Below are positions 27,518 to 59,200 of a stretch of 64,000 nucleotides of DNA, in pieces. Source of the stretch: Eledone cirrhosa (lineage: Eukaryota); assembly GCA_964016885.1 (NCBI GenBank), contig OZ024754.1, forward strand, positions 17,670,001-17,734,000, written 5' to 3'. The position numbers and the translations under genes were made by a program. The notes below the pieces were generated by a model. The model did no database searches. It saw only the letters and a program-made list of their open reading frames with translations, and was not told where the DNA came from. Numbering within the stretch: position 1 is the stretch's first letter; each line of letters begins with the position of its first letter.

Positions 27518-29654
<2,137 letters not shown>

Positions 29655-29656
<2 letters not shown>

Positions 29657-31197: not shown

Positions 31198-31232
31198 AGG
31201 TGACGCGCGTTTCGCCACTGATCAGCTCAAGG
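31198..31232 (-). ncRNA. Degenerate or half hammerhead motif (probable PLE remnant)
   Basis: Reverse complement TTGA-GCTGATCAGTGGC-GAAA-CGCGCG-TC-ACC has the 3' core with a palindromic stem III; the 5' core is damaged. Confidence 0.4.
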
Positions 31233-31914: not shown

Positions 31915-32620
31915 GTATGTGTTGGCGATGTTAGTGATGTTAATGATTGTTGAGGTATGGAGATGTGCCTAGTGGTGGCGGTGGAGGTGTTGTGTGCGAC
32001 AATAAATATACAGGATCGAATTATACGATGGGTTACAGGTTAAAAGGTGACATAGGGAACACGGGCGGGGAAAACAAGGTTGTGAACGTATAGCGATGTG
32101 TGTGGAGGTGGTGGTGGTGGTTATATGTTCGACAATATATTTACATGATCAGATGTTACGGTGGTTTACAAGGTAAAGCTGACAGAGAGGGCAGACATAA
32201 CACAGTGGTTCCAGGAGGGAAGGGGTGATATGTGTTGGTGATGTTAATGGTGTTAATGATTGTTGAAGTATGGAGTTGTATCTGGTGGTGGCGGTGGTGG
32301 TGTGTGCGACAATATATTTACAGGATTGACTTTAACGAAGGATTGTAGGTTAAAAAAGACAGATGGAACATGTGGGAACAAGGTTGTGGGTATGGGATGG
32401 TAGACATATAGCGAGCGATGTGTGTGGTGGCGGTGGTGATGGTGATGGGGTGATGTAATCGACATTATATTTAGAGGATCGGATGCTACAATGGATTACA
32501 AGGTAAAACCTGACAGAGAGGACAGATAGAACACAATGGTACTAATATGAGGGGTGTATGGCGATGTGTCTTTTGGTGGGGGTGATGGATGCGGCATGAT
32601 ATATACAAAATTTTGACTTA
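31915..32620. repeat. Degenerate GT-rich tandem repeat (~310-bp unit made of two related subunits)
   Basis: GACAATATATTTACAGGAT-like marker at ~31998, 32131, 32308 and 32461. Confidence 0.7.
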
Positions 32621-32776
32621 CAAAGGGTTACATGTTATAAGACAAATGCACTGAGCTGAGGGACAGAGAAACAAGGCAAAGGAGGTTATTATTATGTTGG
32701 GTCAAGGTTAGTGTGTGGCCCTCAGCCGAATGTTTGTGCAGAGAAGGTATTCAACTATATACATATATTTAAAGTT

Positions 32777-35143: not shown

Positions 35144-35162
35144 ATATATATAAATAATTACA

Positions 35163-35194
<32 letters not shown>

Positions 35195-35499
35195 AGCACC
35201 CAGTCCATGTTGTAAAATGGAGGGGTGGAGAGGGCCCCTGATCCAGTAAGACAACCACTCTGGTGCTGGTGGCACGAATAAAAGCACCCAGTCCATGCTG
35301 TAAAGTGGTGTTGGTGTTAGGAAGGGCATTCAACCAGTATATATTAATGCCACAAGCTATGAGCACAACAAATGAGAAATACAACAACTGCATAAACAGT
35401 AATAACACTAACCATGTTAGGGCTACACACGGTAGTGGGGTGGCTGGTGTGGCCATGTACAAGAACCTCCCGACTGTCATCAAGCAATCGCACAACAAG

Positions 35500-38400
35500 A
35501 ACAAGAATATGAAGGCATCAAATCTCTGAGTTGCCACACTTAATGTTGGCACTCTAACAGGTAGATCTGGTGAGATAGTTTAGATGCTGGAGAGAAATCA
35601 TATGGATGTGTACTGCATGCAGGTGAGATGGAGAGGTGCCTTTGCAAGACTAATCGCAGGCAAACATCTTAGTTATAAGTTTTTCTGGGTAGGTAACGAT
35701 GATGGGTTAGGTGGGGTGGGCATTTTACTGGCTGAGAGATGGATCGATAAGACAATAGAGGTAGTTAGAATCAGTAATAGAATAATTAAGCTTAGATTAG
35801 TTGTAGGCAAGAGACTGCTGACAATCATCTCTGCCTATGCTCCCCAGGCGGGCCTAGGCAAAGAAGAGAAAGACTGCTTTTACAAGCAACTTTTAGAAAC
35901 GGCCTCAATGACAAAGGAGAGAGACATCGTTATGCTAGCAGGGGACTTCAATGGTCATGTTGGACAGCTCCAGAATGGTTACACTGGGGTACATGGTAGG
36001 TACGGTTATGGCTCAAGAAATGAAGAAGAAGTGAGGTTTCTTGAATTTTGTGATGCAAGTGCATTAACCATTTGCAACACTAACTTCAAGAAGCCTACCA
36101 ACCACCTAATAACCTACAAATGTGGCAAGCACATAAGCGAGATTGACTTCCTGCTAGTTAGACAGAGGGACAGACATGGTGTCAAATACTAAGGCATACC
36201 CTGGGGAAGAATGTACCCCACATAGTCGTTAGTGATATCTCAGTAAGCAAGAGACAGAATGAGACCTACAGGAAGGTGTGGAAAAGAAAGGTCTGAAAGC
36301 CAAGAAACCTTTCACTAAAATATAAATTTAGGAAAACCCTTCAAGATGTGTATGACGAAAAAGAAGACGATTTAGCGACGTATGACATAGATAATAACTG
36401 GAATTTCTTACGTGACAACATACTACAGGCCACTGATGAAACTTGTGGCTGGAGCAGAACTCCAACCAGACAGAGAGTGACCTGGTGGTGGAACAGCACA
36501 GTAGATAAGGCCATTAGAGACAAAAGACTAGCATGGAGTGCTTGGAAAAATGGTGGGTGTAGAGACTGATACACAGCCACTAAGAGAGAAGCTAGACATC
36601 AGGTGTACTTAGCACACAGGGAGGCTGAGAGTAGGAGGTTTGCCAAGGTCCTGTGACGAGAAGATCAGAGACGTGTGGTGTTCCACATTGCAAGGCAGTG
36701 TGTCAGTGTAAATTAGAATATTGTTGGAGATAAATATGTCCGAAATGATGCTGATGTACTTAGTGTCATGAATGATCAGAAAAAGGAGGCCTGGAAATGT
36801 CATTATGCGAGACTGATGCATGTGGAAAATGAATGAGAGAGAGAGAAACAACCCCAGTAGACCCAAGGGACCAGCTATTGAGATTGATGAATATAGGGTC
36901 CAAGAGGCAATTAAGGAAATGAAAAATGGTAAGGCCACTGGACTGTCAGGGATAGTTGCTGAGATGCTGAAGGCATCAGGAGAAGTAGGAACTAAACTGG
37001 TTGCATACATTGTCAATCAAGCTATAAATGGCGGAATCATACCCAAAGACTGGTGTAGCAGTATTCTCATAAATTGCTACAAAGGTAAAGGGGATGCTCT
37101 GGAGAGGAGCAATTATAGAGGCATAAAACTGATGGATTAGGTCATGAAAGTGGCAGAAGAATATTAGAGCAACTAATTAGAGAAAGGGTCAAACTAGATG
37201 AGATGCAGTTTGGTTTTGTGCCTCAGAAAAGTACAACAGATGCCCTCTTCATAGTGAGGCAACTACAAGAGAGGTTCTTACAGAAAAATAAGCCACTATA
37301 CTTAGCCTTTGTTGACCTAGAGAAGGCCTTTGATAGGGTACCCTGATCTCTCATCTGGTGGTCCCTAAGGAAACTAGGTGTTGAGGAATGGCTTGTGAGG
37401 ACAGTGCAAACTTTGTACAGAGATACTGTCAGTAAAGTCAGGGTAGGAATGGAGTTTAGTGAGGAATTCCAGATAAAAGTAGGAGTACATCAAGGTTCAG
37501 TCCTGAGCCCGCTATTGTTCATTATAGTCCTCCAAGCCATAACAGAGGAGTTTAAGACTGGATGCCCATGGGAACTTCTCTATGCTGATGATCTGGTTCT
37601 TATAGCAGAATCAGTAGAGGAGCTAGAGAATAAATTCTGGCTATGGAAACAGCAGTTGGAATCAAGAGGCCTGAGAGTGAACATAGCTAAAACAAAGGCG
37701 TTGATAAGTAGAAGAGAGGACAATACTCTGATTCCATCAGGGAAATGGCCATGTTCGATATGTAGAAAAGGAGCTGGCATAAACTCTATAAAATGTACAC
37801 AATTCAGATCTTGGGTACACAAGTGATGTAGTGGGATAGCAGGCAAACTAACAGGTAGGGAAAACTACATATGCAGTAGATGTACAGGGAAATTTGACAG
37901 TAGTTGTCGCATGATAGACACACTTTTCAAAAGCAGGTAGGTTCTATAGAAGTGGTTGATAGCGTCCGGTACCTAAGTGATCAGATTATCATGGGAGGAG
38001 GTGTTCTGAGACCATAGTATATAAAATAAGGATGGGTTGGAAGAAGTTTAGGGAGCTGCTTCCTCTGTTGACAAAGAAGGGTTTCTCTCTGTGTATGAAA
38101 GGCCAGTTATATGATGCCTGTGTGAGATGCGCCATGCTGCATGGTAGTGAGGTATGGGCAGCAACTGCAGAGGATATGCGACGGCTGGAGAGAAATGAAG
38201 CAAGCATGTTCCATTAGATGTGTAATGTCAATGTGCATGAATGACCAAGCATAGATGAGTTGAGAGAGAAACTGTGTATAAGAGTGATAAGTTGTAGAGT
38301 GCAGGAGAGAAGACTGCGATGTTATGGAGATGTGATGCGCATGGAGGATGACCACTGGGTAAAGAAGTGCCAAGAAATGCCAGTAGAAGTAAGACCACAA

Positions 38401-38546
38401 AAAACATGGGCGGAGGTGGTGAGAGCAGACCTTAAATTGCTGAAGCTCACGGGGTGACGAAGGACTGTAACAAGTGGAGAGATGCTGTACTGAATAGGAC
38501 CCGATCCACCCTTGCAAGCAGGGAAAAGCAGACTGATGATGATGAT
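35500..38546 (+). mobile_element. Near full-length RTE-clade LINE (APE plus RT), multiple stops
   Basis: VATLNVGTLTG, ISAYAPQ, AGDFNGHVG, EIDFLL (APE), then RT and a (GAT)n tail. Confidence 0.93.
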
Positions 38547-38573
38547 GTGTGTGTGTGTATTTATATATATATA

Positions 38574-40834
38574 GGCGACAAGTATACTTAGCTAGGAGGG
38601 AAGCAGAGGATAGAAAATTCAAGCATGTTTTACAACGTGAGGACCAGAAACAGGAGGTATTCAAGATTGCGAGGCAGTGTGTCAGAGATAGTTGTGATGT
38701 CATTGGAGAGAAGTGTATCCGGAATGATAAAGGTGAGCTTGCCCTCACAAGTGCTGAGAAGAAAGATGCATGGAAGAGTCATTATGATAGATTACTAAAT
38801 GAGGAGGATGCATGGGAAGAAGAGACCCTACCCCAAGTAGACCCTATAGAGGGACCAGCAGTACAAGTCAGCGGCAGCGTAGTAAGTAAGGCAATCAAAG
38901 ATATGAAGATGGGGAAGGCAACCGGTCCATCAGGTATAGCTGCCGAGATGCTGAAGGCATCTGGGTCTGTAGGTCACACGATAACCACACGTATCGTTAA
39001 CCAGGTAATACTAGAAGGGGCCATACCAAAAGATTGGTGCAGTAGCATCATTGTCAACTGCTACAAAGGTGAAGGCGATGCACTAGATAGAGGAAACTAT
39101 AGAGGTATAAAGTTGATGGACCAGGTCATGAAAGTAACAGAAAGAGTTATAGCACAGCTGATTAGGGACCGGGTGAAAATAGACGAGATGCAATTTGGGT
39201 TTGTACCAGGAAGAGGCACCACTGATGCCCTCTTCCTTGTGAGGCAATTACAGGAAAAGTACCTAGCTAAAAGTAAGCCACTCTACTTGGCATTTGTCGA
39301 CCTTGAGAAAGCCTTTGACAGAGTTCCACGTGCTGTAATCTGGTGGGCTCTTAGAAAACTAGGAGTAGATGAATGGCTTGTGAAAGCGGTACAAGCCATG
39401 TATAGGGGAGCAGTCAGCAAAGTTAGGATTAGCAATGAGTATAGCGAGGAATTTAGCGTACAGGTTGGGGTCCACCAGGGCTCTGTTCTTAGCCCTCTCC
39501 TGTTCATCATAGTCCTGCAGGCAATAACGGAGGAGTTTAAGACCGGATGCCCATGGGAACTCCTGTATGCTGATGACCTTGCACTCATAGCTGAATCTAT
39601 GGTAGAACTAGAGAATAAATTCCAAACCTGGAAGCAGGGACTAGAAAGAAAGGGTCTCAAAGTCAACATGACAAAGACTAAGATCCTTGTAAGTAGACGA
39701 GAAAACAGAATCCAGATCCCCTCAGGGAAATGGCCTTGCTCAGTATGTAGGAAAGGTGTAGGTAGGAACTCCATTCTCTGCCCCAAATGCAAACAATGGG
39801 TACACAAGAGATGTAGCGGGATCTCAGGAAGCTTAATTAAGAATGTAGGATTCACATGCAGCAGCTGTGCTGAGACAGCAAGCAGCAAACAGCCACAGGA
39901 AACAAGTACCATCAATCTCTGGGAGGGCCCTGTAGAAACAGTAGACAGCTTCTGCTACCTAGGTGACCGAATTAGCAACGGAGGTGGGTGTTCAGAAAGT
40001 GCAATAACTAGGGTAAGAACGGGATGGAAGAAGTTTAGGGAACTACTACCACTGCTAGCTGCAAAAGGCTTCTCCCTCAGAATGAAAGGCAGACTGTATG
40101 ATGTGTGTATCCGAACAGCGATGTTGCATGGTAGCGAGACCTGGGCGCTGAAGGTGGAAGACTTACGTAGATTAGAGAGAAACGAAGTCTGCATGCTCTG
40201 ATGGATGTGTAACAATAATATACGTGAACGACAAAGCATAAATGAATTGAGAGAGAGACTGAGCATAAGAGGAATCAAATGCTGTGTGCAGGAGAGGCGG
40301 TTGCGCTGGTATGGACATGTGATGCGTATGAAGGATGACAGCTGCATAAAAAGGTGCAGAGCACTAGAAGTTGATGGAAACCGCGGAGTGGGGAGACCCA
40401 ACATGACATGGGATGAGGTGATAAAAGCCGACCTTACCCAATTACACCTCTCAAAGACAATGACACACGACCGTGACTTCTGGCGTCACGCAGTAATACA
40501 GAGTACCCGACCTCCCATGGGTACAAGCTGAAGCATATAGACAATATGCCCCCCCCCCCCCACCGCAAGGTGGTCGTGGAGGTGCCACGGCAAAAAAGCA
40601 CCCAGCCCACACTGTAAAGTGGACGTGTAGGCGCCACGAAAAAGCACCCAGCACTCACTGTAAATGAGGTTGGTGTTAGGAAGGGCATCCAGCTGTAGAA
40701 ATCAAGCCAAATCAGTTCCTGTATGAGCAAGGCATGGTCAGCCGACCAGACACTGCCCACAACAGGACAACCCGTCTAACCCATGCTAGCGTGGAAGAAC
40801 GGACGTAAAACGGTGATGATGATGATGATGATGA

Positions 40835-40838
<4 letters not shown>
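38574..40838 (+). mobile_element. RTE-clade LINE, 5'-truncated, youngest-looking copy
   Basis: 550-aa uninterrupted RT ORF (38549..40201), one TGA at a Trp-adjacent Arg position, then 40205..40531 in the same frame. Long 3'UTR and (GAT)n tail. Confidence 0.95.
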
Positions 40839-40871
<33 letters not shown>

Positions 40872-41271
40872 ACAATCGCCTCCGATCAATGTGAGAAAGT
40901 TCTCCAGGAAAATTGACCAGGAATCTTTAAAAATCTTCCTACCGAAGTTAACAAAGAACTTACTAGATCTACCAAATCATGATATTATAAAATTAAATCA
41001 AATTGTTTAGAACTACAAGTGAAGTCATTCTTTTCCTTTTTTAAATATACCTAACTGTACCAAGTATTTCAAACATTTTCCAATATATATCATCATCATC
41101 ATCATTTTTACGTCTGCTTTTCCCTGCTTACAAGGGTGGGACGGGAACTGATTCTGGCTTGATTTCTATAGCTGGATGCTCTTCCTAACACCAACCTCAT
41201 TTACAGTGAGTGCTGGGTGCTTTTTAGCTGTGGCACCTCCACGACCACTTTGCAGTGGAATGATAGGGACT

Positions 41272-41405
41272 ACAGCTGAGTAAACTGGACTAATGTGAAA
41301 TAAAGTGTCTTGCTCAAGGAAACAATACATCACCCAGTCTGAGAATTGAACTCACAACCTTTCGATTGCAAGGCCAATGCTCTAACCACTAAGCCATGTG
41401 CCGCC
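41272..41405 (-). mobile_element. tRNA-derived CORE-type SINE (5' part)
   Basis: Reverse complement: GGCGGCACATGGCTTAGTGG (A box)...GAGTTCAATTC (B box)...TCCTTGAGCAAGACACTT (CORE-like). Confidence 0.8.
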
Positions 41406-41546
41406 ACATATATATATACACACAAACACACCCACACACACATATATATATATATATGTGTGTGTAAAAGGGAAATAGAAATAACAAAACAAACAGTACA
41501 ATACATAGAAGCAATATATTCATTTAACAAAATACCACAAAGAGAG

Positions 41547-41582
41547 TCTTAACATTTTGGATACTAGTCCTTCACCAGAAGA
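41547..41582 (-). ncRNA. Degenerate hammerhead motif
   Basis: Reverse complement TCTT-CTGGTGA-AGGA-CTAGTA-TCC-AAAA-TGT-TA-AGA has two core substitutions. Confidence 0.4.
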
Positions 41583-41835
41583 TAGAGTTAGAAATAGAAA
41601 ATATATAGAAAGTAAAGAGTGATAAGAGGGAAGGAATAGGTGGTGAAAATAAGGGGGAAAATGGGGCAGAAAAAAACACACATGCATATTCAGTTGGCCA
41701 TCTTGGAGATATATATATATATATGTATATATGATGATATTTTGACACCTCATCGCTACTTATATATATATAACAAGTAGTACATTCCTTTTGAAATTTT
41801 TTTTATCAATGTGTCTATCTTATCATTATATTTAC

Positions 41836-42015
41836 CTTGTAACATTCTTATCTGTTCAACCAATGCTTTACATTTGGTAATCTCTTCTTCATAGACATTT
41901 TGTATTTGAATTACTTCTCTCTGAGAAAACTTCTTTTCTACATCTTTTTCACTAAGACGTTGGGTAAAATTGTTCTTCATTTCAGCGTATTCTAATTCAT
42001 ATTTCCCTTTCATCT
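41836..42015 (-). CDS. Coiled-coil repeat exon (4th in transcription order), 180 nt, phase 1-1
   Basis: caaattgaAG|AG ATG AAA...TTA CAA G|GTaaat; encodes EMKGKYELEYAEMK...EQIRMLQ. Confidence 0.8.
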
Positions 42016-42655
42016 CTTCAATTTGTTTGTGAAAATATTCAAATAGAAATGAAATGTTTATGTTAGGTTAATATTTATTAGATGTCACTATAAATATTTT
42101 GTCAATATTGAATGAATAATGATGTCATTCTTGACTTAACTTTAGTAATATTACAACTTATTGATCTAGAAGTAATTTAATAATTTGTACCATCTATAAT
42201 GTTTTATGTTGAGTTAATATAAATTACTTACATCTAGATATATGTATGGTTGAGATAGTTGATGTCTCTTTTTATGTCTCTCTCTCATATCAAGGTTTTA
42301 GAAAAAAAAACTGAATATCTTTGTATTTCACATGTGTGGTACCTACATTTAAATGTGGTCTGGGAATATAGAAATTTGTCTTAATCCAATAATTCTGGTC
42401 TTTGGAGGAAAGACAACACTCAGAATATATAGGTACAGAGAAAAGATGTGGATCTTTTGTTCAAAAGTTTTAATAATATCTTAAGTTGAATTTTATGTAA
42501 AAAATATGTAGGACATCCACTGTTTAGGTAAAAGTCTAATCAACAGACATCATACTAAACATAGAAGTTAAACCCTGAGTTAAAACTACATTTTCACATA
42601 TCAATCCTCAGTTATTATTGTTTTCATTTGCTATGACATCATGATATTTATTTAC

Positions 42656-42835
42656 CTTCCAACCTCTTTATCTCTTCCTCCAATGATTTACATTTAGCAG
42701 TCTCTTCTTTATAGGCACTTTTTATTTTAATAATTTCTTCCTTGTAAGCCTTCACTTCCTCATCTTTGTTGATGAGATTTTCATTCACGCTTTTCTTCTT
42801 TTCACTGTGTTCCAGTTCAGTTTTTAGTTTCACCT
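42656..42835 (-). CDS. Coiled-coil repeat exon (3rd), 180 nt, phase 1-1
   Basis: caaattgaAG|AG GTG AAA...TTG GAA G|GTaaat; in-frame stop immediately after the donor. Confidence 0.8.
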
Positions 42836-43134
42836 CTTCAATTTGTTTTTTGAAAATATTCAAATAAAAGTTAAATGTTAACTTAAGAATGATTAGATAT
42901 ATGAATTTTAAAAGAATATTTTATGAATTATGTACACACATGCTCACACACACGTGCTCCATAAGACAAAAGAAAAACTTTATACCAACCCTTAGCTATT
43001 TCTAGCTCTTTTCATAATCCCTGAAGATAACTTGGACTTTGACTCAACCTAAATGCACACACATGCATACACACTACAAAACAACAAAATGCAATCTGGA
43101 CCATTATGATAAGAAAAAGAATTTTCTTTTTTAA

Positions 43135-43330
43135 TCCTTTAGTTACCAATCCGGCCAAAACCGGCTCTGATTCAATGAATGTATATATATAAATATGTAT
43201 TAAAATATTGATTAATACATAAAAGTATTAATCATATTGTCTGACAAAAGTAAAGGTTAGCCAATGTGTTAAAAATAGTTACTATTAAAACCTTAAGTCA
43301 GCTCTACTAATAGAAAATTTGAGAAATTTC
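43135..43330. mobile_element. Fragment of a TTAA-associated MITE (piggyBac-like end)
   Basis: TTAA-TCCTTTAGTTACCAATCCGGCCAAAACCGGC resembles the inverted end at 47884-47919. Confidence 0.45.
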
Positions 43331-43401
<71 letters not shown>

Positions 43402-43429
43402 ATATATATATATATATATATAATATATA

Positions 43430-43519
<90 letters not shown>

Positions 43520-43687
43520 AATGTGGTTGGTGTTAGGAAGGGCATCCAACTGTAGAAAACCTGCCAGACAGTCCTATGCGAGCAAGACAATCACTCTTGC
43601 CTCAAGTGGGAATACCCCCGTCCAAACCCATGCAAGCGTGGAACACGGACGTTAAACGTTGATGATGATGATGATGATGATGATATA

Positions 43688-46600
43688 CTAGCAGTTTAGC
43701 CCGGCGTTGCTCGGGTTTGTTCATTTGCTATGAAAAGTTACATACAGGTAAACGTGGCTTGAAAGCGAATAAGCTTATCAATTAAGTGCATAAAGCAGTT
43801 GAACCGGTTATTAAATCTTACGAACCAATAACCATTTTCGACAATCAATGATGGGTTAATAATCTTCCAATAGCGAATTTAGTAGACCAAAGTTGCAAAA
43901 TGGTGGCCCTGATGCCACTGGGTGTCAGATTTGTCCGTTATGGGTGACCCTACCAGGAAATAGTTTTCCAGACGGCATAGCTCCAACATCTCCAACACCT
44001 GCACCAACATCTATAGCACCTCTTTGTAGACGATATTACGTGTCATCCCTTGAGGAGTGTAAGCAAAAGGTCCATTGCTACATGGTAACAGGCGACATAA
44101 AGTTGACCATGGGAGAAGCATGGCTCCCCCAAATAGATGCCCGCCACCGACAATGTTTGCCCTTGTGACTTGGACATGGCAAAACATAGTCTCACCGGGA
44201 ATTGGGATCGGCGGGAATCAAATGGGATATCTGACGCCGAGGGGAAAAGGTTCATCCTTGGAATGAAAACATTCTCCCCTCTCCCGCACCCCGTTACAAT
44301 GGTGGCCTCAATCAACTGTGGCGTCAGTGACTTGACGACCATGCGAGTACCGTTGCACTGCTTTGGTGGGTACAAGTTCCTTATTAGCATAATGGGAGAG
44401 CCAACCCTAAGCTTAAGAATGTGAGGTGGAAGCCCTGGGGGCTTAAGGGAATTTAATAACTCAACCGGATAATTAATGATATCGTTGGGGTCTGACATCC
44501 GGTCGATAGATTTGAAGATGTGCTCTTTACTGGGAATCTTCTCAATCCACTGCTCGTTAATAAAATTAACCATGGTATTTTTTGGAGCAAGGATGGCTCT
44601 TTCGCTGAGCCAATCGAGGTTTTTAAAGTTAGATGAGACATTAGGAAAAACTGCTTCCCAAAAGTCAGAAGGGATGCTCACAATGTTGCACAGGGAGTCG
44701 ATTGCTATGCCACCCTTGTCATCCGCAGGGACCTTTCCCTCACCAAGTGCTAAAATGTTCTGAGCAAATGCTGCAGACATGTTGTGACCATGCAAATGAG
44801 CACGCATATTTGTGCCCAGGTACAAACTCTTCACCTGGAGCCACAATATGGACGACTTAAGGCAGGCACGCACTTCATCAGCTTTTGTCCCTTTGGGGAT
44901 GACAGGCAGCGTTTGCCAAAAATCCCCTGATAGCAGAAGGGTTACACCACCCATAGGAGCCGTAGAATCCCTAATGTCTTTCAGGGTACTGTCCAATGCC
45001 TCAAGGGCACCCTTGTGTGCCATTGCGCACTCATCCCAAACAATGGGGCAACATTTTTTGAGAACCAGAGCTTCGTGTGAACTCTTGCTGATATTGCATG
45101 TTGGTGTCTCAGTTTTTATTAAATCCAAGGGGTGTTTAAAGGTTGAATGTGCTGTCCTACCTCCCGGCAGCAAAGTAGCAGCGATCCCGGACAATGCAAC
45201 GGCCAACGCAATTTTTTTCTCCTGATGAATCTTAGCGAGAATCAATTTCGTTACAAAAGTTTTTCCGGTACCCCCAAGAGCATCGAGAAAGTAAATACCC
45301 CCAGTCTGATTTTGAACCGCGTCAATGATAGTTAAATAGGCCAACCTTTGGTCCGACAGAAGTTTGGGCTCATTTTCCTCTAAGTATTGGGAAAGAGATT
45401 CGATGTCATATGCTGTTTCTCGCAACAAATCCGGGGCCAACGTATTAACTTCCTCTCTGACGGTTGACGGCAAGCCATACGTCACCACTCACTCCGACCC
45501 ATGTCGAGGAGGGTGTCCTCGATATCAATGAGTGCTCTGTTGTAGATAATGTCGCTGTAACCAACTTCCACTGAAGGATACTGCAGATGAGCCAGGTGCA
45601 GGAAGTCCTCAGACATGAAGTCTCTGTACTTAACCCATAAAGACTTTTGATTACCCAATTCACACTTTTGAAGCAAAATGGCAAAGAGTTCCCGTAGACC
45701 TTTAGGTGATTTCAACAAAGCACCCTCTGCTAAAGTGGAATCCCATTGCGAATCATCTTCCAAAAGACCACGCTTAAAGCAGGCTTCCCGGTACGTATCA
45801 CATATTTCTCCATTAACAGTTTTGAGGTCCTGAAAACTTTGTGGGCCTACAACTTCATGCAGAAGAAGGCAGAGATGAAAGCAGTCATGCTGACTTGGGG
45901 GCACAGTGTAAACCCTTCCAAGACAGCTGTCAAATTTTACACCAGGATTTCTTTCAACAGCCTGAGCTGACTTTCTTCACACCCAAGTATTTTTCGACCA
46001 TATAAAGTAGGATGGAACCTGGGGGTACACAATTGTTTGCGCAAATGTATTGAACTGGCAAAGTTTGAGAAACACGTCAGAGTGGTCTCTTTCGGATCGG
46101 TGGCCAACTTGGCGGCGGTTTGGTCCGTAAAGTAAACCCTTTGCCCATTTTCCAAGTGTACCGCAAGCTGTATGATGGTGGGGTGCCGTTGGTGTAGGGG
46201 TAAACCAAATAGGCGCCAAAAAGCTTCATTGCTACTGATGTACCACCTCGCCAGGTATTCTGTAACTAGTCCCTGCTATTTTCAGCTTGAAATGCGAACA
46301 TTGCGGCATCAGAGCCCTTATTTACATATTTGCATATGTATTTTATTGACTTGATGGAGTTGCGAAACTCAACGTTGATGTAGGCGTTGAACATCTTCAA
46401 GAGAAGTGGGCAGTAAGGGACCACCCATCTATTGTCAACTTGACCTCTCCTTTACTGTTGTGGTGAAGCCACTGTTCTCGGGCTGTCTCCGCCTGTACAG
46501 GGGGTACCCATCGCCACCAGTCTGAGTCTGGTCAACAAATTTTTGGGGGTATCCCTTACTGCACGACCCCCCCCCCCTTTCAGACACGTGTGATGCTCAT

Positions 46601-47406
46601 TAGGACCCGATGCACACGGACCATGAATCATGTTACCTTTGACGATGTCATGTAATTCCTGGTCAGTTTCTGGGTTAGGGATTTCAGCCGAAATGAAGCT
46701 GTCTATGGCATTTGAATTGATTTTATCAGCTAACCAAATCAAAATGTGAGCATGTGGCAGCCCTCGTTTTTGCCATTCGACGGTGAACATGTCACATTTT
46801 ACAGCCCCAAATACCTGACCCTTTTTGATTAAAGCCATGAGTTTAGCCAGTTTCAGTCTGAACACTCTGGCAATGAGGTCATGTCTGTTCGAATAATTTT
46901 GCCCAGGAAAAAGTTCACAGGTTACATTCCGATTCATGTGTCTATAGCATTAATCTGTTATATGAAGTGTTATTTTGCGGGTTGTTATTTGCAATAAGCC
47001 GATTGAAAATGCCCCAGATAAGCCGTATGTCAATACAGAACGCTCCACTGCAGTGTTGTCATATAGGGAGTGAAGAGCGACAAAGAGAGTAAAGCAGTTA
47101 AATTATAGAGAGAGGGAATATACGGAATGCTCCATTTGATCATACACATTCTTTCTCTCTCTGCAGTGTTGTCATATAGGGAGTGAAGAGCGACAGAGAG
47201 AGTAAAGCAGTTAAATTATAGAGAGGGGGAATGATCATGATAGATTTTTGCCCTTATTGTTGATGGATTTGAAATTTTTTTGCTTCATGACCTTTTCTTG
47301 ACCAAAAGCAATAATTGTCCAGACTTTGTATAGAATCCGTTGGAAATTGTGGACGTGAATCCGTTACAAACCTTAACACACACATCCTCAGATTTATATA
47401 TATAGA
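43688..47406 (-). mobile_element. Helitron (internally deleted, degenerate RepHel) with both termini
   Basis: 5' TC at 47406. 3' hairpin CCCGAGCAACGCCGGG plus CTAG at 43688. Inserted between A and T. Rep motif VEWQKRGLPHAHILIW and PIF1 helicase motifs. Confidence 0.95.
44043..45488 (-). pseudogene. Helitron PIF1-like SF1 helicase domain
   Basis: FLDALGGTGKTF, IVWDECAM, LSGDFWQTLPV, QFPVRLCFAM, KSQGQTL, FSHGQLYVA; frameshifted before the terminal TRNIVYKEVL*. Confidence 0.92.
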
Positions 47407-47420
47407 TATATATATATCAA

Positions 47421-47509
47421 GTTTAATATAGAAATGGCTTCTACAGGACTAGAACTGTTTTAATTGAATGAAACAGTTCTAGTACTGTAGAAGCCATTTC
47501 TATATAAAC
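47421..47509. repeat. Short palindrome (~40-bp arms)
   Basis: TATAGAAATGGCTTCTACAGGACTAGAACTGTTT / AAACAGTTCTAGTACTGTAGAAGCCATTTCTATA. Confidence 0.9.
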
Positions 47510-47915
47510 CCTTTAGAATTTATATTACTCTATATATACTTTTGTATTCTTTATCTTACATAATATCTCAAATAATATTGAATTTACGAGATTTTGATGT
47601 TATTTATTTTGAGAACAATACCTTAACATCAGTATGAGCAGCCAGTTTGAACAGAAAGAGATGAGAGAATTCTGGCCGTATATGGCCGGTTTACATTACA
47701 CTATATTCACATTACTCTATATATACTATTATATTTTCATGGTAAAGGCTTTACCTCATATAATTATCTCACATAATATCGAATCTATGAGATTTTGCAA
47801 GTATTTATTTTGAGAACAATATGTTAACATCAGTTTGAGCGACCAGTTACAGTCAGTTTCAACAGAAAGAGGTAGAGAATTCTGGCCGGTTTTGGCCGGT
47901 TTGAACACTAAAGGG
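47509..47915. mobile_element. piggyBac-like MITE with internal ~190-bp tandem duplication
   Basis: TAAA|CCCTTTAG...CTAAAGGG|TTAA termini; 47524-47695 is repeated at 47711-47905. Confidence 0.65.
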
Positions 47916-48074
47916 TTAAACTTTGTGTTTACACTCTACTAAAGTATTGAGTACTTTACTTGCTGTGGCTACCCCCAATTGAATCTGGGATTCACATACA
48001 TATATCATTACAAAAGTAAATGCATTCCTTTTGTTAACTTATATTCAATGGCTTTGTCTTATTATTATATTTAC

Positions 48075-48254
48075 CTTCCATCCTTTTTATCTGTTCCTCC
48101 AGTGAATCACATTTGGAAAGTTTTTCTTCATAACCACTTTGTAATTTAACCACTTCTTTCTTCGAAGCCTTCACTTCTTCATCGTTTTCTCTGAGATGTT
48201 TCTTCAGTTCTTTCTTCGTTTCATCATATTCCAATCCACCTTTTGCTTTCATCT
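48075..48254 (-). CDS. Coiled-coil repeat exon (2nd), 180 nt, phase 1-1
   Basis: caaattgaAG|AG ATG AAA...ATG GAA G|GTaaat. Confidence 0.8.
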
Positions 48255-48634
48255 CTTCAATTTGTTTTTGAAAATATTCAAATAAAATGAAATGTTATGT
48301 TAGGCTAATATTTATTAGATGTCATTATAAATATTTTGTCAATATTGAATGAATAATGATGTCAATCTTGACTTAACTTTAGTAATATTACAACTTATTG
48401 ATTTAGGAAGTAATTTAATAATTTGTACCATCTATAATGTTTTATGTTGAGTTAATATAAATTACTTACATCTAGATATATGTATGGTTGAGATAGTTGA
48501 TGTCTCTTTTTATGTCTCTCTCTCATATCGAGGTTTTAGAAGAAAAAAAACTGAATATTTTTGTATTTCACATGTGTGGTACCTACATTTAAATGAGGTC
48601 TGGGAATATAGAAATTTGTCTTAATCCAAGAATT

Positions 48635-49666
48635 TTTGTTTGTGGCATATATTAATGACATAGATGCCAACTTAAAGAATGCCACAGTACTAAAGTACGC
48701 AGATGACATCAAGCTGTACCTTGAGATAAAAAGGACAGATCCTGAACACTATAGATCTTGCTTGCAGTGTGACCTGGACACAATGCAACAATAGATCTCA
48801 GACCGCAACTCAAGCTAGCTGTGGACAAGTGCACCACCATGCATTTTGGGAGTAAAAACCCAGCGCCCACAAACTCCCTCCACAGCACTAATATCAAGAA
48901 GTCTTCTTGTGAATCTGACCTGGGCATTATGGTCAGCAGCGATTTGCGTTGGACGAAGCACGTCTCTAAAATTGTCAAGAGGGCTGAGGGTATCTTAGCA
49001 TCACTCAGCAAGATCTTTGTCAGCCGCTCTCCAGCTATCTATTTAAGGCTGTACATGGCTATGGTGCGGCCACACTTAGAATTTGCATCACCAGTCTGGA
49101 ACCCCTATCTTGCTCAGAACATTGACCGCCTGGAAACTGTTCAGAGACGTGCAACCAAGCGAATACCCTCCATCAGGCATCTACCATATTCTGAGCGCCT
49201 TGCTTCCCTGGCATGGATACATTGAAGCTCCGACACCTGGCAACTGACTTGGTAAACACCCACAAAATTGTTAACCATCTTGCCAACAACAACCCTGAGT
49301 ACCCTTTTGATTTCCATGTGTCTAACACACGTGGACATGCCCACAAAGTCAGAAAACAGCACAGTTCCCATGACTTTCGGAAACATTTTTTCATGCTCAT
49401 AGTTGCTGAAGCATGGAACAAACTACCTGCATCAGTTGTTAGCTGTCGAGACACTGCATCCTTTAAAACCTCCATGCTTCCTGAGATTCGCCAACACTAC
49501 ACCTAATGTTCCCCCTCCATACACATACACACATGTATATCATGACTCATACACTATTCACTTCCCTGACATTTGTATATTATTTTATGTACTATACATG
49601 CACCTTTGATGAGTTGTAGTGTACCTGAGCACTTTACACAATCATTTTATTATTATTATTATTATT
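48635..49666 (+). mobile_element. CR1-group LINE 3' fragment
   Basis: YINDID..KYADDIKL, SDLGI, VRPHLEFASPVWNPY, LETVQRRATK and an (ATT)n tail. The empty site is preserved in the paralogous intron at ~42390. Confidence 0.92.
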
Positions 49667-49943
49667 AATTCTGGTCTTTGGAGGAAAGACAACACTCAGA
49701 ATATATAGGTACAGAGAAAAGATGTGGATCTTTTGTTCAAAAGTATCAATAATATCTTTAGGAGTTGAATTTTATGTAGAAAATATGTTGGATATCCACT
49801 GTTTGGGTAAAAGTCTAATCAACAGACATCATACTAAACATAGAAGTTAAACCCTGACTAAACTACATTTTCACATGTCAATCCTCAGTTAAACTCTTCC
49901 AGGTAATTTTTGTTTTCATTTGCTATGACACCATTATATTTAC

Positions 49944-50123
49944 CTTTCAAACTGTTTATCTCTTCCTCCAATGATTTCCATTTATCAATCTCTTCTAAAT
50001 AGGCACATTTTAATTTATTTACTTCTTCCTTCGAAGACTTCACTTCCTCATCTTTTTCTCTGAGACGTTCCATCAGATCTTTCTTTATTTCACTGTATTC
50101 CAATTCAGCATTTACTTTCAAAT
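49944..50123 (-). CDS. Coiled-coil repeat exon (1st visible), 180 nt, phase 1-1
   Basis: tgaattgaAG|AT TTG AAA...TTG AAA G|GTaaat; an in-frame TGA just upstream fixes the acceptor position. Confidence 0.8.
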
Positions 50124-50273
50124 CTTCAATTCATTTTTGAAAACATTCAAATAAACATGAAATGTGACGTTAGCAGGGATAAGATATCAGATAAATATCT
50201 TTTTCATAGTGTATGAATTAGGACTTTATTTAATTTATTTTTATTTCTCATAGATATAATGTAAACTACGAAC

Positions 50274-53200
50274 ACACACACACAGACATACACAGACATA
50301 CACAGACATATACAGACATATACAGACATACACAGATATACACAGATACACACAGACATACACAGACATACACAGACATACACAGACATATACAGACATA
50401 TACAGACATACACAGATATACACAGACATACACAGACATACACAGACATATACAGAGATATACAGATATACACAGACATACACAGACATATACAGACATA
50501 TACAGACATATACAGACATACACAGACATATACAGACATACACAGACATACACAGACATATACAGACATACACAGATATACACAGACATACACAGACATA
50601 TACAGACATATACAGATATATACAGACATATACAGACATACACAGACATACAAAGACATATACAGACATACACATACACACACAGACATATACAGACATA
50701 CAAAGACATATACAGACATACACAGATATACACAGACATATACAGACATATACAGACATACACAGACATATACAGACATATACAGATATACACAGACATA
50801 CACAGACATACACAGACATATACAGACATACACAGACATACACAGACATATACAGACATACACAGACATATACAGACATACACAGACATACACAGATATA
50901 CACAGATATATACAGACATACACAGACATATACAGACATACACAGACATATACAGACATATACAGACATACACAGACATACACAGACATACACAGACATA
51001 TACAGACATACACAGACATACACAGACATATACAGACATACACAGGCATATACAGACATATACAGACATACACAGACATACACAGACATACACAGACATA
51101 CACAGATATACACAGATATATACAGACATACACAGACATACACAGACATACACAGACATACACAGACATATACAGACATACACAGACATACACAGATATA
51201 CACAGATATATACAGACATACACAGACATACACAGACATACACAGACATACACAGACATATACAGACATACACAGACGTACACAGACATCCACAGACATA
51301 TACAGACATACACAGACATATACAGACATACACAGACATACACAGACATACACATACATATACAGACATACACATACATACGCAGACACACACAGACATA
51401 CACAGATATACACAGATATATATACAGACATACACAGACATACACAGACATACACAGACATATACAGACATATACAGACATACACAGACATCCACAGACA
51501 TATACAGACACACACAGACATACACAGACATACACAGATATACACAGAGACACAGACACACACAGACATACACAGACATATACAGACATACACAGACACA
51601 CACGGACATACACAGACATGCACAGATATACACAGATATACACAGACATACACAGACAAACACAGATATACACAGACATACACAGACATATACAGACATA
51701 CACATACATATGCAGACACACACAGACATACACAGACACACACAGACATACACAGACATACACAGATATACACAGAGACACAGACACACACAGACATACA
51801 CAGACACACACAGACACACACAGATATACACAGATATACACAGATATACACAGACACACACAGAGACACACAGGCATACACAGACATACACAGACATACA
51901 CATACATATACAGACATATACAGACATACACAGACATATACAGACATACACAGACATACACAGACATACACAGACATACACAGACATACACAGACATACA
52001 CAGAGATACACAGACATATACAGACATACACAGACATACACAGATATACACAGATATACACAGACATATACAGACATATACAGACATACACAGACATACA
52101 CAGACATATACAGACATACACAGACATACACAGACATATACAGACATACACAGACATAGACAGACATACACAGACATACACAGATATAAACAGACATACA
52201 CAGATATACACAGACATATACAGACATATACAGACATACACAGACATACACGGACAAATACAGACATATACAGACATATACAGACATATACAGACATACA
52301 CAGACATACACAGACATACACAGACATACACAGATATATACAGACATACACAGATATACACAGACATATACAGATATATACAGATATACACAGATATATA
52401 CAGACATACACAGATATACACAGACATACACAGACACACACAGATATATACAGACATATACAGACATACACAGTCATACATAGACATATACAGACATATA
52501 CAGGCATATACAGACATACACAGACATACACAGACATACACAGACATATACAGACATATACAGACATACACAGATATATACAGACATACACAGACATATA
52601 CAGACATACACAGACATACACAGACATATACAGACATACACAGACATATACAGACATATACAGACATACACAGACATACACAGACATACACAGACATACA
52701 CAGATATACACAGATATATACAGACATACACAGACATACACAGACATACACAGACATATACAGACATACACATACATACGCAGACACACACAGACATACA
52801 CAGACACACACAGACATACACAGACATACACAGATATACACAGAGACACAGACACACACATACATACACAGACATATACAGACATACACAGACATACATA
52901 GACACACACAGACATACACAGACATACACAGATATACACAGAGACACAGACACACACAGACATACACAGACATACAGACATACACAGACACACACAGACA
53001 TACACAGACATACACAGATATACACAGATATACACAGACATACACAGACAAACACAGATATACACAGATATACACAGACATACACAGACACACACAGACA
53101 CACACAGATATACACAGATATACACAGATATACACAGACACACACAGAGACACACAGACATACACAGACATACACAGACATACACAGACATACACAGACA

Positions 53201-56200
53201 TACACAGACATATACAGACATACACAGACATATACAGACATACACAGACATACACAGACATACACAGACATACACAGACATACACAGACATACACAGACA
53301 TATACAGATATACACAGACATACACAGACATATACAGACATACACAGACATACACAGACACACAGAGACATACACAGACATATACAGACATATACAGACA
53401 TACACAGACATACACAGACATACATAGACATACACAGACATATACAGACATACGCAGACATACACAGACATACACAGATATACACAGATATACACAGACA
53501 TATACAGACATATACAGACATACACAGACATACACAGACATATACAGACATACACGGACAAATACAGACATATACAGACATATACAGACATATACAGACA
53601 TACACAGACATACACAGACATACACAGACATACACAGATATATACAGACATACACAGATATACACAGACATATACAGATATATACAGATATACACAGATA
53701 TATACAGACATACACAGATATACACAGACATACACAGACACACACAGATATATACAGACATATACAGACATACACAGTCATACACAGACATATACAGACA
53801 TATACAGACATATACAGACATACACAGATATACAGACATACACAGACATACACAGACATATACAGACATATACAGACATACACAGACATACACAGACATA
53901 CAGAGACATATACAGACATACACAGATATATACAGACATACACAGATATACACAAACATGCACAGACATACACAGACATACACAGACATATACAGACATA
54001 CACAGACATACACAGACATACACAGACATACACAGACATATACAGACATATACAGACATATACAGATATACACAGACATACACAGACATACACAGACATA
54101 CACAGACACACACAGACATATACAGACATATACAGACATACACAGACATATACAGGCACACAGACACACACAGACATACACAGACATATACAGACACACA
54201 CAGAGACACACAGACATACACAGACATATACAGACACACAGACACACACAAACATACACAGACATACACAGACATACACAGACATACACAGACAAACACA
54301 GATATACACAGACATACACAGAGACACACAGAGACACACAGATACACACAGACACACAGACATACACAGAGACACACAGACATACACAGAGACACACAGA
54401 CATACACAGTGACACACAGACATATACAGACATACACAGACACACACAGATATACACAGACAGACACAGACACACACAGAGACACACAGACATACACAGA
54501 TATACACAGATATACACAGACACACACAGAGACACACAGACATACACAGAGATATACAGACACACAGACACACACAGACATACACAGACACACACAGAGA
54601 CACACAGACATACACAGATATACACAGATATACACAGACACACACAGAGACACACAGACATACACAGACATACACAGATATATACAGACATACAAAGACA
54701 CACACAGACATACACAGACATACACAGACATACACAGACATACACAGAGATACACAGACATATACAGACATACACAGACATACACAGACATATACAGACA
54801 TATACAGACATACACAGACATACGCAGACATATACAGACATATACAGACATACACTGACATATACAGATATACACAGACATACACACACAGACATACACA
54901 GACATACACAGACATACTCAGACATACACAGACATACACACACAGACATACACAGACATACACAGACATACACAGACATACACAGACATACACAGACACA
55001 CACAGAGATACACAGACATATACAGACATATACAGACATACACAGACATACACAGACATACACAGACATATACAGACATACACAGACATACACAGACATA
55101 CACAGATATACACAGATATATACAGATATATACAGACATACACAGACATATAAAGACACACAGACATACACAGATATACACAGACATACACAGACATATA
55201 CAGACATACACAGACATACACAGACATACACAGACATATACAGACATACACAGACATACACAGTCATACACAGACATACACAGACATATACAGACATATA
55301 CAGACATACACAGACATACACAGACATACACAGACATATACAGACATACACAGACATACACAGACATACACAGATATACACAGATATATACAGATATATA
55401 CAGACATACACAGACATATAAAGACACACAGACATACACAGATATACACAGACATACACAGACATATACAGACATACACAGACATACACAGACATACACA
55501 GACATATACAGACATACACAGACATACACAGTCATACACAGACATACACAGACATATACAGACATATACAGACATACACAGACATACACAGACATACACA
55601 GACATACACAGACATACACAGATATATACAGACATACACAGATATACACAGACATACACAGACATACACAGACATACACAGATATATACAGACATACACA
55701 GATATACACAGACATATACAGACATATACAGATATACACAGATATATACAGACATACACAGATATACACAGACATACACAGACACACACAGATATATAGA
55801 GACATATACAGACATACAGAGTCATACACAGACATATACAGACATATACAGACATATACAGACATACACAGACAAATACAGACATATACAGACATATACA
55901 GACATACACAGATATACACAGACATACACAGACATACACAGACATACACAGACATATACAGACATATACAGACATACACAGACATACACAGACATACACA
56001 GACATACACAGACATATACAGACATATACAGACATACACAGACATACACAGACATACACAGATATATATAGACATATACAGATATATACAGACATACACA
56101 GACATACACAGACATACACAGACATATACAGACATATACAGACATATACAGACATACACAGACATAGACAGACATACACAGACATACACAGACACACACA

Positions 56201-59200
56201 GACATATACAGAGACACACAGACATACACAGACATACACAGACATACACAGACACACAGATACACACAGACATACACGGACATATACAGACACACACAGA
56301 GACACACAGACATACACAGACATATACAGACACACAGACACACACAGACATACACAGACATATACAGACACAGAGACACACAGACATACACAGACATATA
56401 TAGACACACAGGCACACACCAACATACACAGACATACACAGACATACACAGACAAACACAGATATACACAGACATACACAGATATACACAGACACACACA
56501 GACATACACAGATATACACAAACATACACAGAGACACACAGAGACACACAGATACACACAGACATACAGACATACACAGAGACATACAGACATACACAGA
56601 GACACATAGACATACACAGAGACACACAGACATACACAGAGACACACAGACATATACATACATACACAGACACACACAGATATACACAGACATACACAGA
56701 CACACACAGAGACACACAGACATACACAGATATACATAGATATACACAGACACACACAGAGACACACAGACATACACAGACATATACAGACACACAGACA
56801 CACACAGACATACACAGACACACACAGAGACACACAGACATACACAGACATACACAGATATATACAGACATACAAAGACACACACAGAGACACACAGACA
56901 TACACAGACATACACAGACATACACAGACATACACAGACATATACAGACATACACAGACATATACAGACATACACAGACATACACAGACATACACAGACA
57001 TACACAGATATACACAGAGATACATAGACATATACAGACATACACAGACTTACACAGACATACACAGACATATACAGACATATACAGACATACACAGACA
57101 TACGCAGACATATACAGACATATACAGACATACACAGACATACACAGACATACACAGACACACACAGACACACACAGACATACACATACATATACAGACA
57201 TATACAGACATACACAGACATACACAGACATACACAGACATACACAGACATATACAGACATACACAGACATACACAGACATACACAGATATACGCAGATA
57301 TATACAGATATATACAGACATACACAGACATATAAAGACACACACACATACACAGATATACACAGACATACACAGACATATACAGACATAGACAGACATA
57401 CACAGACATACACAGACATATACAGACATACACAGACATACACAGTCATACACAGACATATACAGACATATACAGACATATACAGACATACACAGACATA
57501 CACAGACATACACAGACATACACAGACATACACAGATATATACAGACATACACAGATATATACAGACATACACAGATATACACAGACATACACAGACACA
57601 CTCAGATATATACAGACATATACAGACATACACAGACATATACAGACATACACAGACATACACAGACATACACAGACATACACAGATATACACTGATATA
57701 TACAGACATACACAGACATACACAGACATACACAGACATATACAGACATATACAGACATACACAGACATACACAGACATACACAGACATATACAGAAATA
57801 CACAGACATACACAGACATATACAGACATACACAGTCATATAAAGACATATACAGACATACACAGACATACACAGACGTACACAGACATACACAGATATA
57901 CACAGATATATAGAGACATACACAGACATACACAGACATATACAGACATGCACAGACATACACAGACATCCACAGACATATACAGACATACACAGACATA
58001 TGCAGACATACACAGACATACACAGACATACACAGACATATACAGACATACACATACATACGCAGACACACACAGACATACACAGACATACACAGATATA
58101 CACAGAGACACAGACACACATAGACATACACAGACATATACAGACATACACAGACACACACAGACATACACAGATATACACAGATATACACAGAGACACA
58201 GACACACACAGACATACACAGACATATACAGACATACACAGACATACACAGACACACACAGACATACACAGACATACACTGATATACACACAGACACAGA
58301 CATACACAGACATACACAGACATACACAGATATACACAGATATACACAGACATACACAGACAAACACAGATATACACAGACATACACAGACATACACAGA
58401 CACACACAGACACACACAGATATACACAGATATACACAGACACACACAGAGACACACAGACATACACAGACATACACAGACATACACAGACATACACAGA
58501 CATACACAGACATATACAGACATACACAGACATATACAGACATACACAGACATACACAGACATACACAGACATACACAGACATACACAGACATACACAGA
58601 GATACACAGACATATACAGACATATACAGATATACACAGACATACACAGACATACACAGACATATACAGACATACACAGACATACACGGACACACAGAGA
58701 CATACACAGACATATACAGACATATACAGACATACACAGACATACACAGACATACACAGACATATACAGACATACACAGACATACACAGACATACACAGA
58801 TATACACAGATATATACAGATATATACAGACATACACAGACATATAAAGACACACAGACATACACAGACATACACAGACATACACAGACATATACAGACA
58901 TATACAGACATACACAGACATACACAGACATACACAGACATACACAGACATATACAGACATATACAGACATACACAGACATACACAAACATACACAGATA
59001 TATACAGACATATACAGACATACACAGACACACACAGACATATACAGACATACACAGACATACACAGACATACACAGACATACACAGACATACACAGATA
59101 TATACAGACATACACAGATATACACAGACATATACAGATATATACAGATATACACAGATATATACAGACATACACAGATATACACAGACATACACAGATA

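Follow-up and report, generated by a model that had tools for sequence, protein, structure and literature searches.

Organization of the locus

The window, i.e. the whole stretch of 64,000 nt of Eledone cirrhosa DNA that was analysed, contains four exons of a repeated type, all on the minus strand, which are numbers 9 to 12 in an array where 48 paralogous exons of around 180 nt are spread over 161 kb (G000:C14:17,602,026-17,763,058). Read along the minus strand, exons E1 to E8 and the N-terminal exons are located outside the window, beyond its end, and the first element within it is the 3' part of intron I8 (50124..64000; full length 35,549 nt; a 10-bp satellite runs from 50272). Exon E9 (49944..50123) has 180 nt, phase 1-1, AG/GT ends and an open frame for a 60-residue module of coiled-coil type. 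Intron I9, which belongs to the intron family named here family A, consists of a 5' part (49667..49943), whose first 280 nt are nearest to those of I26 (96.4%), and a 3' part (48255..48630) reaching the acceptor of E10, with a high-copy insertion of about 1,036 nt on the plus strand between them (48631..49666). This insertion has an (ATT)n tail, AATT at either end and a read depth of 1.5e5-7e5, and a copy at 94.9% identity sits in intron I40; a Pfam search with it gave no match, and by resemblance only we take it to be LINE-like. Next are E10 (48075..48254, 180 nt) and the 5,239-nt intron I10 (42836..48074), which is not homogenised and contains a decayed Helitron at about 43700-47000 (PIF1 and Helitron_like_N domains), followed by E11 (42656..42835, 180 nt) and the family-A intron I11 (42016..42655, 640 nt), whose homogenised core runs from about 60 nt past the donor to the acceptor. 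E12 (41836..42015, 180 nt) and most of I12 (1..41835; full length 42,058 nt), filled with repeats, complete the window, E13 to E48 and the tail exons being located beyond its start.

Exactly 180 nt are found in 43 of the 48 modules. All 47 introns end in AG, and a GT donor is absent in three of the 48 modules (E7, E17 and E31), which would need to be passed over in splicing or to rely on alternative donors. None of 43 exons contains a stop codon (36.5 would in simulations), no AG occurs within 20 nt before any of the 47 acceptors (26 expected), and the modules contain two prolines in 2,537 residues, against 17, with 44% of charged residues. Mean residue identity among modules is 49%, and the exons differ at around 28% of nucleotides. 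Pfam coiled-coil families matched only weakly, each in at most 3 of 43 modules, and the Pfam search of the modules and their relatives returned no informative family.

The array gene (gene B) is likely a tandem paralog of a gene (gene A) like the spindle gene NuMA, with a predicted membrane tail. Its exons match the head of the relatives P0004 and P0001 at 45-62%, without stops, and the best PDB match of residues 8-347 of P0004 is NuMA (9hhl, E 0.001); when only the first 150 residues of P0001 were compared with PDB, NuMA was not among the matches. The relatives that were found have at most four matching stretches. Gene A has the C-terminal NuMA motif of chains 6hc2_B and 3ro2_B (E 0.07); this motif gave no match in gene B, searched down to C14:17,520,001, and gene B ends in a hydrophobic tail. 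Octopods carry the tailed form as a separate tandem gene (P0001, P0003, P0009). The link to NuMA depends on PDB matches of its relatives whose E-values are weak (0.001 to 0.12), and gene B is filed as a NuMA-derived paralog and not as NuMA.

Several introns of the array are more similar than the exons they separate

The starting point of this work was an earlier note, with counts made by hand, on an intron far more conserved than the exons on either side. The copies at 42016-42390 and 48255-48629, given as differing at about 14 of 375 positions, do show 14 differing columns in a global alignment (96.3% identity), made up of 8 mismatches among 372 aligned bases and 6 gap columns. The second half (42391-42655 versus 49667-49943) had been placed above 90%, which is right if gaps are left out (95%; 13 mismatches in 259 aligned bases) and wrong per column (86.9%, with 24 gap columns). 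The figure for E12 and E10 (41836-42015 versus 48075-48254) was exact, 51 of 180 nt, with the same residue in 26 of 59 whole codons, or 27 of 60 once the split codon is counted; E11 and E9 (42656-42835 versus 49944-50123) differ at 37 of 180 nt and are identical in 34 of 59 residues, in line with the 34 of 60 claimed. Synonymous differences amount to 11.5 of 32.9 in the first exon pair and 5 of 32 in the second, against 21 of 631 in the intron (P 5e-8 and 0.006, respectively). The outer intron flanks are diverged, as had been said, similarity being gone within about 80 nt.

Near-identical introns between dissimilar exons could also result from an error of assembly or polishing, or from separate insertions of a young dispersed repeat, and the earlier note had named misassembly and such a repeat as possible refutations. 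Read contigs showed no sign of misassembly: those of exons plus flanks had no differences (depth 11.7-14.0), and the core contig had a depth of 42, near the 53 predicted from 4.3 assembly copies. These contigs are possibly from the assembled animal, are not long reads, and none covers a whole unit. Each copy carries 1-8 private variants, core read depth was 50-74, compared with thousands to 1e6 for true repeats, and of 21 matches to the core in a genome search that skips common words, 20 fall within the array; the remaining one, about 220 nt at 75-76%, lies 24 Mb away on the contig. Altogether we regard an origin by artefact or dispersed repeat as extremely improbable.

Several intron families have been homogenised, probably by conversion

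Seven introns make up family A (I2, I6, I9, I11, I15, I24 and, partially, I26), and their cores differ by 1.4-3.6% across all 21 pairs. Other families reach 98.8-99.8% identity, with I38 and I46 identical at 571 of 572 positions and I31 and I36 at 98.8% over 425 nt. Divergence in the last 60 and 110 intron nt was 21% and 25%, respectively, in 1,056 non-family pairs, but 4-5% among 15 pairs of family A and about 1% among 10 of family B; since unrelated intron ends differ this much, the family introns must have been homogenised recently. Shared variants of the seven family-A cores support incompatible groupings (columns 216 versus 363, and 248 versus 716), to which homoplasy could contribute; column 329 of the alignment, the insertion cut, was ignored. 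The tracts are mosaic and bounded, and do not follow one duplication tree. Gene conversion, which the earlier note favoured, is supported, but not its confinement to one intron pair: there are seven copies and further families, and the youngest tracts enter exons.

In families A and B the tracts are tied to the acceptor and weaken toward the 5' end, and a splice site is located within about 35 nt of many tract ends. In a region so rich in repeats, this could reflect excised intron RNA which, reverse-transcribed by LINE enzymes, would convert paralogous introns, with tracts ending at splice sites by mechanism. The youngest tracts, however, pass splice sites, as in E38-I38-E39 versus E46-I46-E47 (one difference in the last 88 nt of E38/E46, and the first 34 nt of E39/E47 shared), I20-E21 versus I31-E32, and E9/E26 from position 93. 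Between genes A and B, too, there are common tracts, at 97% over 826 nt and at 98.8% over 345 nt, other exons being at 67-84%; these tracts cover exons plus intron together, as expected of conversion at the DNA level, and we consider an RNA template very unlikely. By an eye-chosen motif, five of five exons that follow family-A introns have one type of downstream intron, a number that falls to three of five by clustering and constitutes a hint only.

The intron core might likewise be conserved because it holds an RNA element or splicing regulator under purifying selection. Conservation does extend to the acceptor, and the intron folds slightly better than shuffled sequences (z -1.5, with 1 of 20 shuffles as good). 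Nevertheless, Rfam gave no match in either intron copy (five weak matches appeared elsewhere within 41700-50300), each family is near-identical for a different sequence, one core tolerates a 1-kb insertion, and no copy of the family-A core was found in gene A, all of which leaves a functional core with very little probability.

Exon divergence

Exons flanking family-A introns have a mean dS of 0.44 over 31 pairs (lowest 0.06), far above the distance between cores, and are about as diverged as random exon pairs, with dN/dS among exons of 1.0-1.2. The comparison of dN, dS and intron distance proposed in the earlier note therefore favours conversion, and its alternative of diversifying selection on the modules is not clearly supported, dN/dS being near 1 and not clearly above it. 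Model M2a was better than M1a (P about 1e-10), but fixing dN/dS at 1 and allowing codon rate variation fitted equally well (lnL -4492.4) as a positively selected class (lnL -4493.4), so that positive selection by M1a/M2a was not accepted, and these fits show no selection at the level of residues by which a filter on exons could be explained. The simple model outperformed an IQ-TREE gamma codon fit, which was left out.

These data bear on the proposal that the units are recent duplicates whose exons evolve about ten times faster than their introns, through positive selection or exon-targeted mutation. Accelerated exon evolution has been argued for venom genes. Besides the M2a result, E21 and E32 fit such a scheme, with 7 differences in 180 nt, all non-synonymous, versus 5 in 911 in their common intron block (P 0.001). 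Against it, divergence is as high at synonymous sites as elsewhere in the exons, the exons next to family-A introns do not stand out from random pairs, and the 21-25% divergence of non-family intron ends indicates that introns are not slow; we thus find fast-evolving exons very improbable.

The exon tree is star-like, with internal branches making up 12%, and the exon allele spectrum (381 alleles, versus 177-199 under conversion equilibrium) fits a burst followed by little exon conversion. This ruled out an equilibrium of conversion among all exons in which divergence would result from family size alone. Exon conversion has not ceased altogether: an excess of identical runs was observed in 30 of 903 exon pairs (9 expected), two of them globally significant, and the near-identity of E21 with E32 and of parts of E38/E46 and E39/E47 points the same way. 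A PHI-type test gave no significant result for 43 exons (P 0.11-0.47).

What stops conversion at the exon edge

Tract limits were taken from binned mismatch profiles and strict BLAST ends. Across the acceptor, mismatch in 28 pairs with matching acceptor-side introns, which are not independent of one another, rose from 8.3% in the last 20 intron nt to 25% in the first 10 exon nt, the corresponding background values being 17% and 32%. A statistic on the extent of identity into the exons was uninformative (background 90th percentile of 132-163 nt) and was dropped.

Toy simulations reproduced the pattern in 35 of 50 runs with selection against conversion that changes exons, in none of 70 with neutral erosion and in 4 of 40 with exon scrambling. 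The selection setting deletes exon-changing events by construction, and one of its five settings gave no matching run in 10. In a first round with lower rates, no run of 144 matched, two selection settings being among them, and the erosion version lost homogenisation everywhere. The simulations favour a filter against exon-changing conversion; the earlier suggestion that exon conversion is selected against gains support to that extent, with room for a neutral route.

Such a route would combine real conversion with a mechanical barrier: exons would swap short tracts with any of 47 diverged partners and grow apart from their family mates, and mismatch-sensitive recombination would halt at their edge, with no need for selection. 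A dN/dS near 1, the excess of short identical runs and the matching scrambling runs agree with it, and splice-site flanks, the best conserved parts between old units (17% divergence), could be tract ends. However, plain edge erosion never produced the pattern, three of the four scrambling matches needed an exon conversion rate of 30, above the 5-20 bracket obtained from the allele spectrum, and the seven E21/E32 differences are scattered single changes, three of them unique, and not tracts. We consider the barrier a serious contender, if an unlikely one. The reading that we prefer, and judge somewhat probable, is that in this 48-exon array of a NuMA paralog ectopic conversion keeps homogenising the introns while tracts that enter exons are removed by selection.

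Proposed history and function

Under the preferred reading, gene B would have originated as a duplicate of gene A in which most of the giant coiled-coil exon was deleted. The final 180 nt of this exon may have gained an acceptor from old coding sequence and then been amplified in an old burst, since which mutual conversion would have continued only where introns have long stretches of uninterrupted homology. Should splicing include every one of the 48 modules, the predicted product would have a NuMA-type head and a membrane tail separated by about 2,830 residues of rod; by analogy with the transmembrane isoforms of fly Mud it might act as a very long membrane tether. The weakest step concerns the cost of exon conversion. 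The guess we favour is that a homodimeric rod made of near-identical modules could pair out of register; this might predict extra divergence between neighbours, but adjacent modules are as similar as random pairs (49.2% versus 48.9% identity, P 0.66).

More speculatively, and with rather low confidence, selection in this octopod membrane-anchored rod of 48 NuMA-derived modules could guard the difference between modules, as a registration barcode, and not given residues. Were this true, exons would drift at dN/dS near 1 and yet resist the conversion that flattens the introns, the rod would measure roughly 400 nm (coiled coils rise 0.15 nm per residue), and skipping of same-phase exons could tune tether length. 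With dN/dS near 1, the usual explanation by a few adaptive residues is a poor fit.

Comparison with known systems

Conserved introns combined with diverged exons are already known from opsins and silk genes; the scale seen here and the gene look new, our literature search having found no account of a membrane-tailed NuMA paralog with its rod deleted and rebuilt from one exon. As in NuMA and Mud, there are an N-terminal head and a putative long coiled coil; gene A retains the NuMA motif and gene B has a hydrophobic tail, and Drosophila Mud has a predicted C-terminal transmembrane domain (PMC12458289). Unlike in Mud, the octopod tailed form is a tandem gene of its own, with its rod in E. cirrhosa rebuilt from the array. 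Fixed-length exons of the same phase, reshuffled by ectopic recombination, occur in the 90-bp LRR exon arrays of Tetrahymena (PMC6564038) and the heptad exons of chicken BG genes (PMC4046983), whose tails are coiled coils made of small exons. These are multigene families, and homogenised introns set against diverged exons are not described in the parts of those papers considered here. Titin Ig domains, in which tandem neighbours diverge and so avoid misfolding (PMC4660218), offer a reason why identical modules could be harmful; this was shown for folded beta domains, and in the array divergence between neighbours does not exceed that between distant modules.

Spider Flag and Argiope MaSp2 have iterated introns, about 97.6% alike within a gene and of more than one type (PMC1885213, PMC9779670), and resemble the array in having repeated exon-intron units with near-identical introns in one gene for a structural protein. 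MaSp2.2 repeats, however, are 93.5% identical in protein, well above the average among array modules, whose coding repeats are thus not homogenised, and the intron families of the array are irregularly interleaved and broken by transposons.

What began as a curiosity of two copies becomes a natural experiment with many, comprising 48 exons, intron families of varied size and age, and dozens of tract ends; with so many families and readable tract ends in one gene, the question of selection versus divergence can be tested with population or sister-species data. The closest parallel is found in the primate red and green opsin genes, where introns are homogenised by conversion and exon divergence stays high, with a peak at exon 5, a pattern read there as selection against exon conversion (PMC3924837). 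The opsin case involves two genes and two known functional residues; the array involves 48 modules in one gene and several intron families, and is read from a single species, with dN/dS near 1 and without known target residues.

A duplicated intron more conserved than its exons

The earlier note had described an intron duplicated in the window (42016-42390 and 48255-48629) and far more conserved than the exons adjoining it, and the feature is real. The first part of the pair shows 8 mismatches and 6 gap columns, and the second has 13 mismatches among 259 aligned bases plus 24 gap columns, while the two paralogous exon pairs differ at 51/180 and 37/180 positions, which bears out the counts made there by hand. 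The second intron copy is interrupted by a high-copy insertion of ~1,036 nt. Divergence at synonymous sites alone exceeds the intron distance of 21/631 (P 5e-8 and 0.006 for the two exon pairs). Misassembly is made improbable by read contigs, at a depth of about 12 (11.7-14.0 for X1), in which exons and flanks show 0 differences from the assembly; these came from three runs of one sample, possibly the assembled animal, and none extends across a whole unit.

An array of 48 modules in a probable NuMA-derived paralog

The exons belong to an array of 48 paralogous modules (E1-E48) on the minus strand, from 17,763,058 to 17,602,026, of which E9-E12 lie in the window, which covers contig positions 17,670,001-17,734,000. 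All are in phase 1-1 and together comprise 8,482 nt (2,827 codons); 43 of the 48 measure 180 nt, four carry in-frame deletions (171, 171, 174 and 102 nt) and E7 is truncated to 124 nt, while E1 forms the final part of a longer exon. A normal donor is absent in E7 (DNA piece L043), E17 (L039) and E31 (L036), with the GT lost in the last two, so that skipping or other donors would be needed. Statistics were computed on the 43 full-length modules, none of which contains a stop (36.5 in neutral simulation), and only 2 prolines were found against 17 expected. Across 47 acceptors, AG never occurs in the 20 nt upstream (26 expected). These three counts suggest that the array may be functional. The introns also house a decayed Helitron, recognisable by its PIF1 and Helitron_like_N domains (I10, window 43700-47000), a 10-bp satellite (I8, window 50272-64000; 1,380 copies within the window) and, filling most of the 708-nt I19 (L039), a 40-nt tandem repeat. 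A perfect-looking hairpin at window 47428-47504 adjoins high-copy repeats, and its matches to microRNA families were weak, below gathering scores.

Profile searches with the module returned one protein, P0001 of Octopus bimaculoides, among 7,998 candidates scored, and six among 1.84 billion representatives, the three strong ones being octopod proteins, which suggests that the DNA comes from an octopod. Mapping of octopod proteins onto the genome revealed two tandem genes. Gene A, at about 17.953-17.883 Mb, shows matches to Argonauta P0004 along its whole extent; among three PDB matches of P0004, the best two are the head and tail of human NuMA (E 0.001 and 0.12), and NuMA chains also rank top for gene A's own tail exon (E 0.07 and 0.09). 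Gene B (about 17.84-17.585 Mb) consists of stop-free head exons, the array, and a last exon whose hydrophobic tail resembles octopod proteins P0001, P0003 and P0009; a NuMA tail motif was not found for it down to 17.52 Mb. Fly Mud, too, is predicted to carry a transmembrane domain at its C-terminus (PMC12458289). The module corresponds to the final 180 nt of a giant exon in gene A, and the array acceptor region aligns, by eye, with the coding sequence immediately upstream of it. As E1 brings together two stretches lying far apart in that giant exon, we infer that gene B probably lost most of it by deletion. An inverted head exon copy lies between the genes (17,869,655-17,869,768; 81.6% to A's exon).

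Recent and repeated copying of introns

The intron pair is part of a family of seven (I2, I6, I9, I11, I15, I24 and partial I26) spread over 125 kb. Their cores, of which that in I11 runs from ~60 nt after the donor to the acceptor, differ by 1.4-3.6% in 21 pairs, against 12-34% in the first ~100 alignment columns and a mean dS of 0.44 in the flanking exons (31 pairs, those with E7 and E27 left out); mean exon divergence over all 903 pairs is 28%. A second family (I20, I31, I36, I38, I46 and parts of I39 and I44) reaches 98.8-99.8% identity, and smaller near-identical pairs are also present. Introns outside the families have ends that differ by 21-25% (1,056 pairs), so that unconverted introns are of roughly the same age as the exons. 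The variants that the seven cores share conflict with each other. Gene A also has tracts at 97-99% in common with gene B, 150-310 kb away, beside exons at 67-84%. One (17,922,743-17,921,920 and 17,769,221-17,768,396; 97.2%, 826 nt) covers exons and intron; the other (17,898,909-17,898,567 and 17,585,651-17,585,307; 98.8%, 345 nt) sits past the tail exon and stop of gene B, and may thus be an alternative end of gene B or a recent stray copy. Taken together, the families, the old non-family ends, the conflicting variants and these tracts show that copying has been recent and repeated.

Independent insertion of a young dispersed repeat at both sites could also yield similar introns, but when the genome was searched with the core, 20 of the 21 matches lay inside the array. 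The remaining one (L050:4658-4891), at 75-76% over ~220-240 nt in the middle of a family intron and with no module exon nearby, is perhaps an old repeat. Rfam gave no match within the introns. The depth of the core contig was 42, where the 4.3 copies in the assembly predict 53.

Why exons are spared

The exon tree is star-like, and in simulations (7 settings, 6 runs each) a burst with little later conversion fitted the data, while a conversion equilibrium among exons was rejected. Some exon exchange does occur (30/903 pairs, 9 expected), and the youngest tracts extend into exons. At the acceptor side of 28 family pairs, one whole-exon pair being dropped, mismatch is 8% over the final 20 bases of the intron and climbs to 25% over the 10 exon bases that follow; at the donor side (11 pairs), similarity fades across ~40 exon bases. 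The youngest whole-exon copies, E21 (L039) and E32 (L036), have 7/180 exon differences, all non-synonymous, against 5/911 in their shared intron block.

Diversifying selection was offered in the earlier note as the alternative to conversion. Exon dN/dS is 1.0-1.2, and model M2a is preferred over M1a; a dN/dS of 1 with rates varying among codons gives an equally good fit, and positive selection is therefore not claimed. A toy conversion model with six copies reproduced the pattern in 0/70 neutral runs, 4/40 with exon scrambling and 35/50 when exon-changing tracts were discarded, and in 0/144 of an earlier round at lower rates. From this evidence and the exon data, it is very likely that gene conversion homogenises the introns, and a selective filter removing exon-entering conversion is favoured with less assurance. 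Exon conversion might be costly through out-of-register pairing of modules, which is a guess modelled on titin domains (PMC4660218); the pattern this predicts for neighbouring modules was not observed.

Comparison with known systems

In a search mostly of non-subscription journals, the octopus and NuMA literature gave no paper that was related, judging by its listing, and among the matches listed on exon arrays and conversion none concerned gene B by title and abstract start. Venom PLA2 genes are a case of intron-over-exon conservation. In snake serum protein genes, low intron distance is found together with Ka/Ks above 1 (PMC6609765). Primate opsins (PMC3924837) present the same pattern as the array, and in spiders Flag and MaSp2 have iterated introns that are alike as they are here (PMC1885213, PMC9779670), although in MaSp2, unlike in the modules, the coding repeats are homogenised too. 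The pattern is thus already known in kind, and the array is unusually large.
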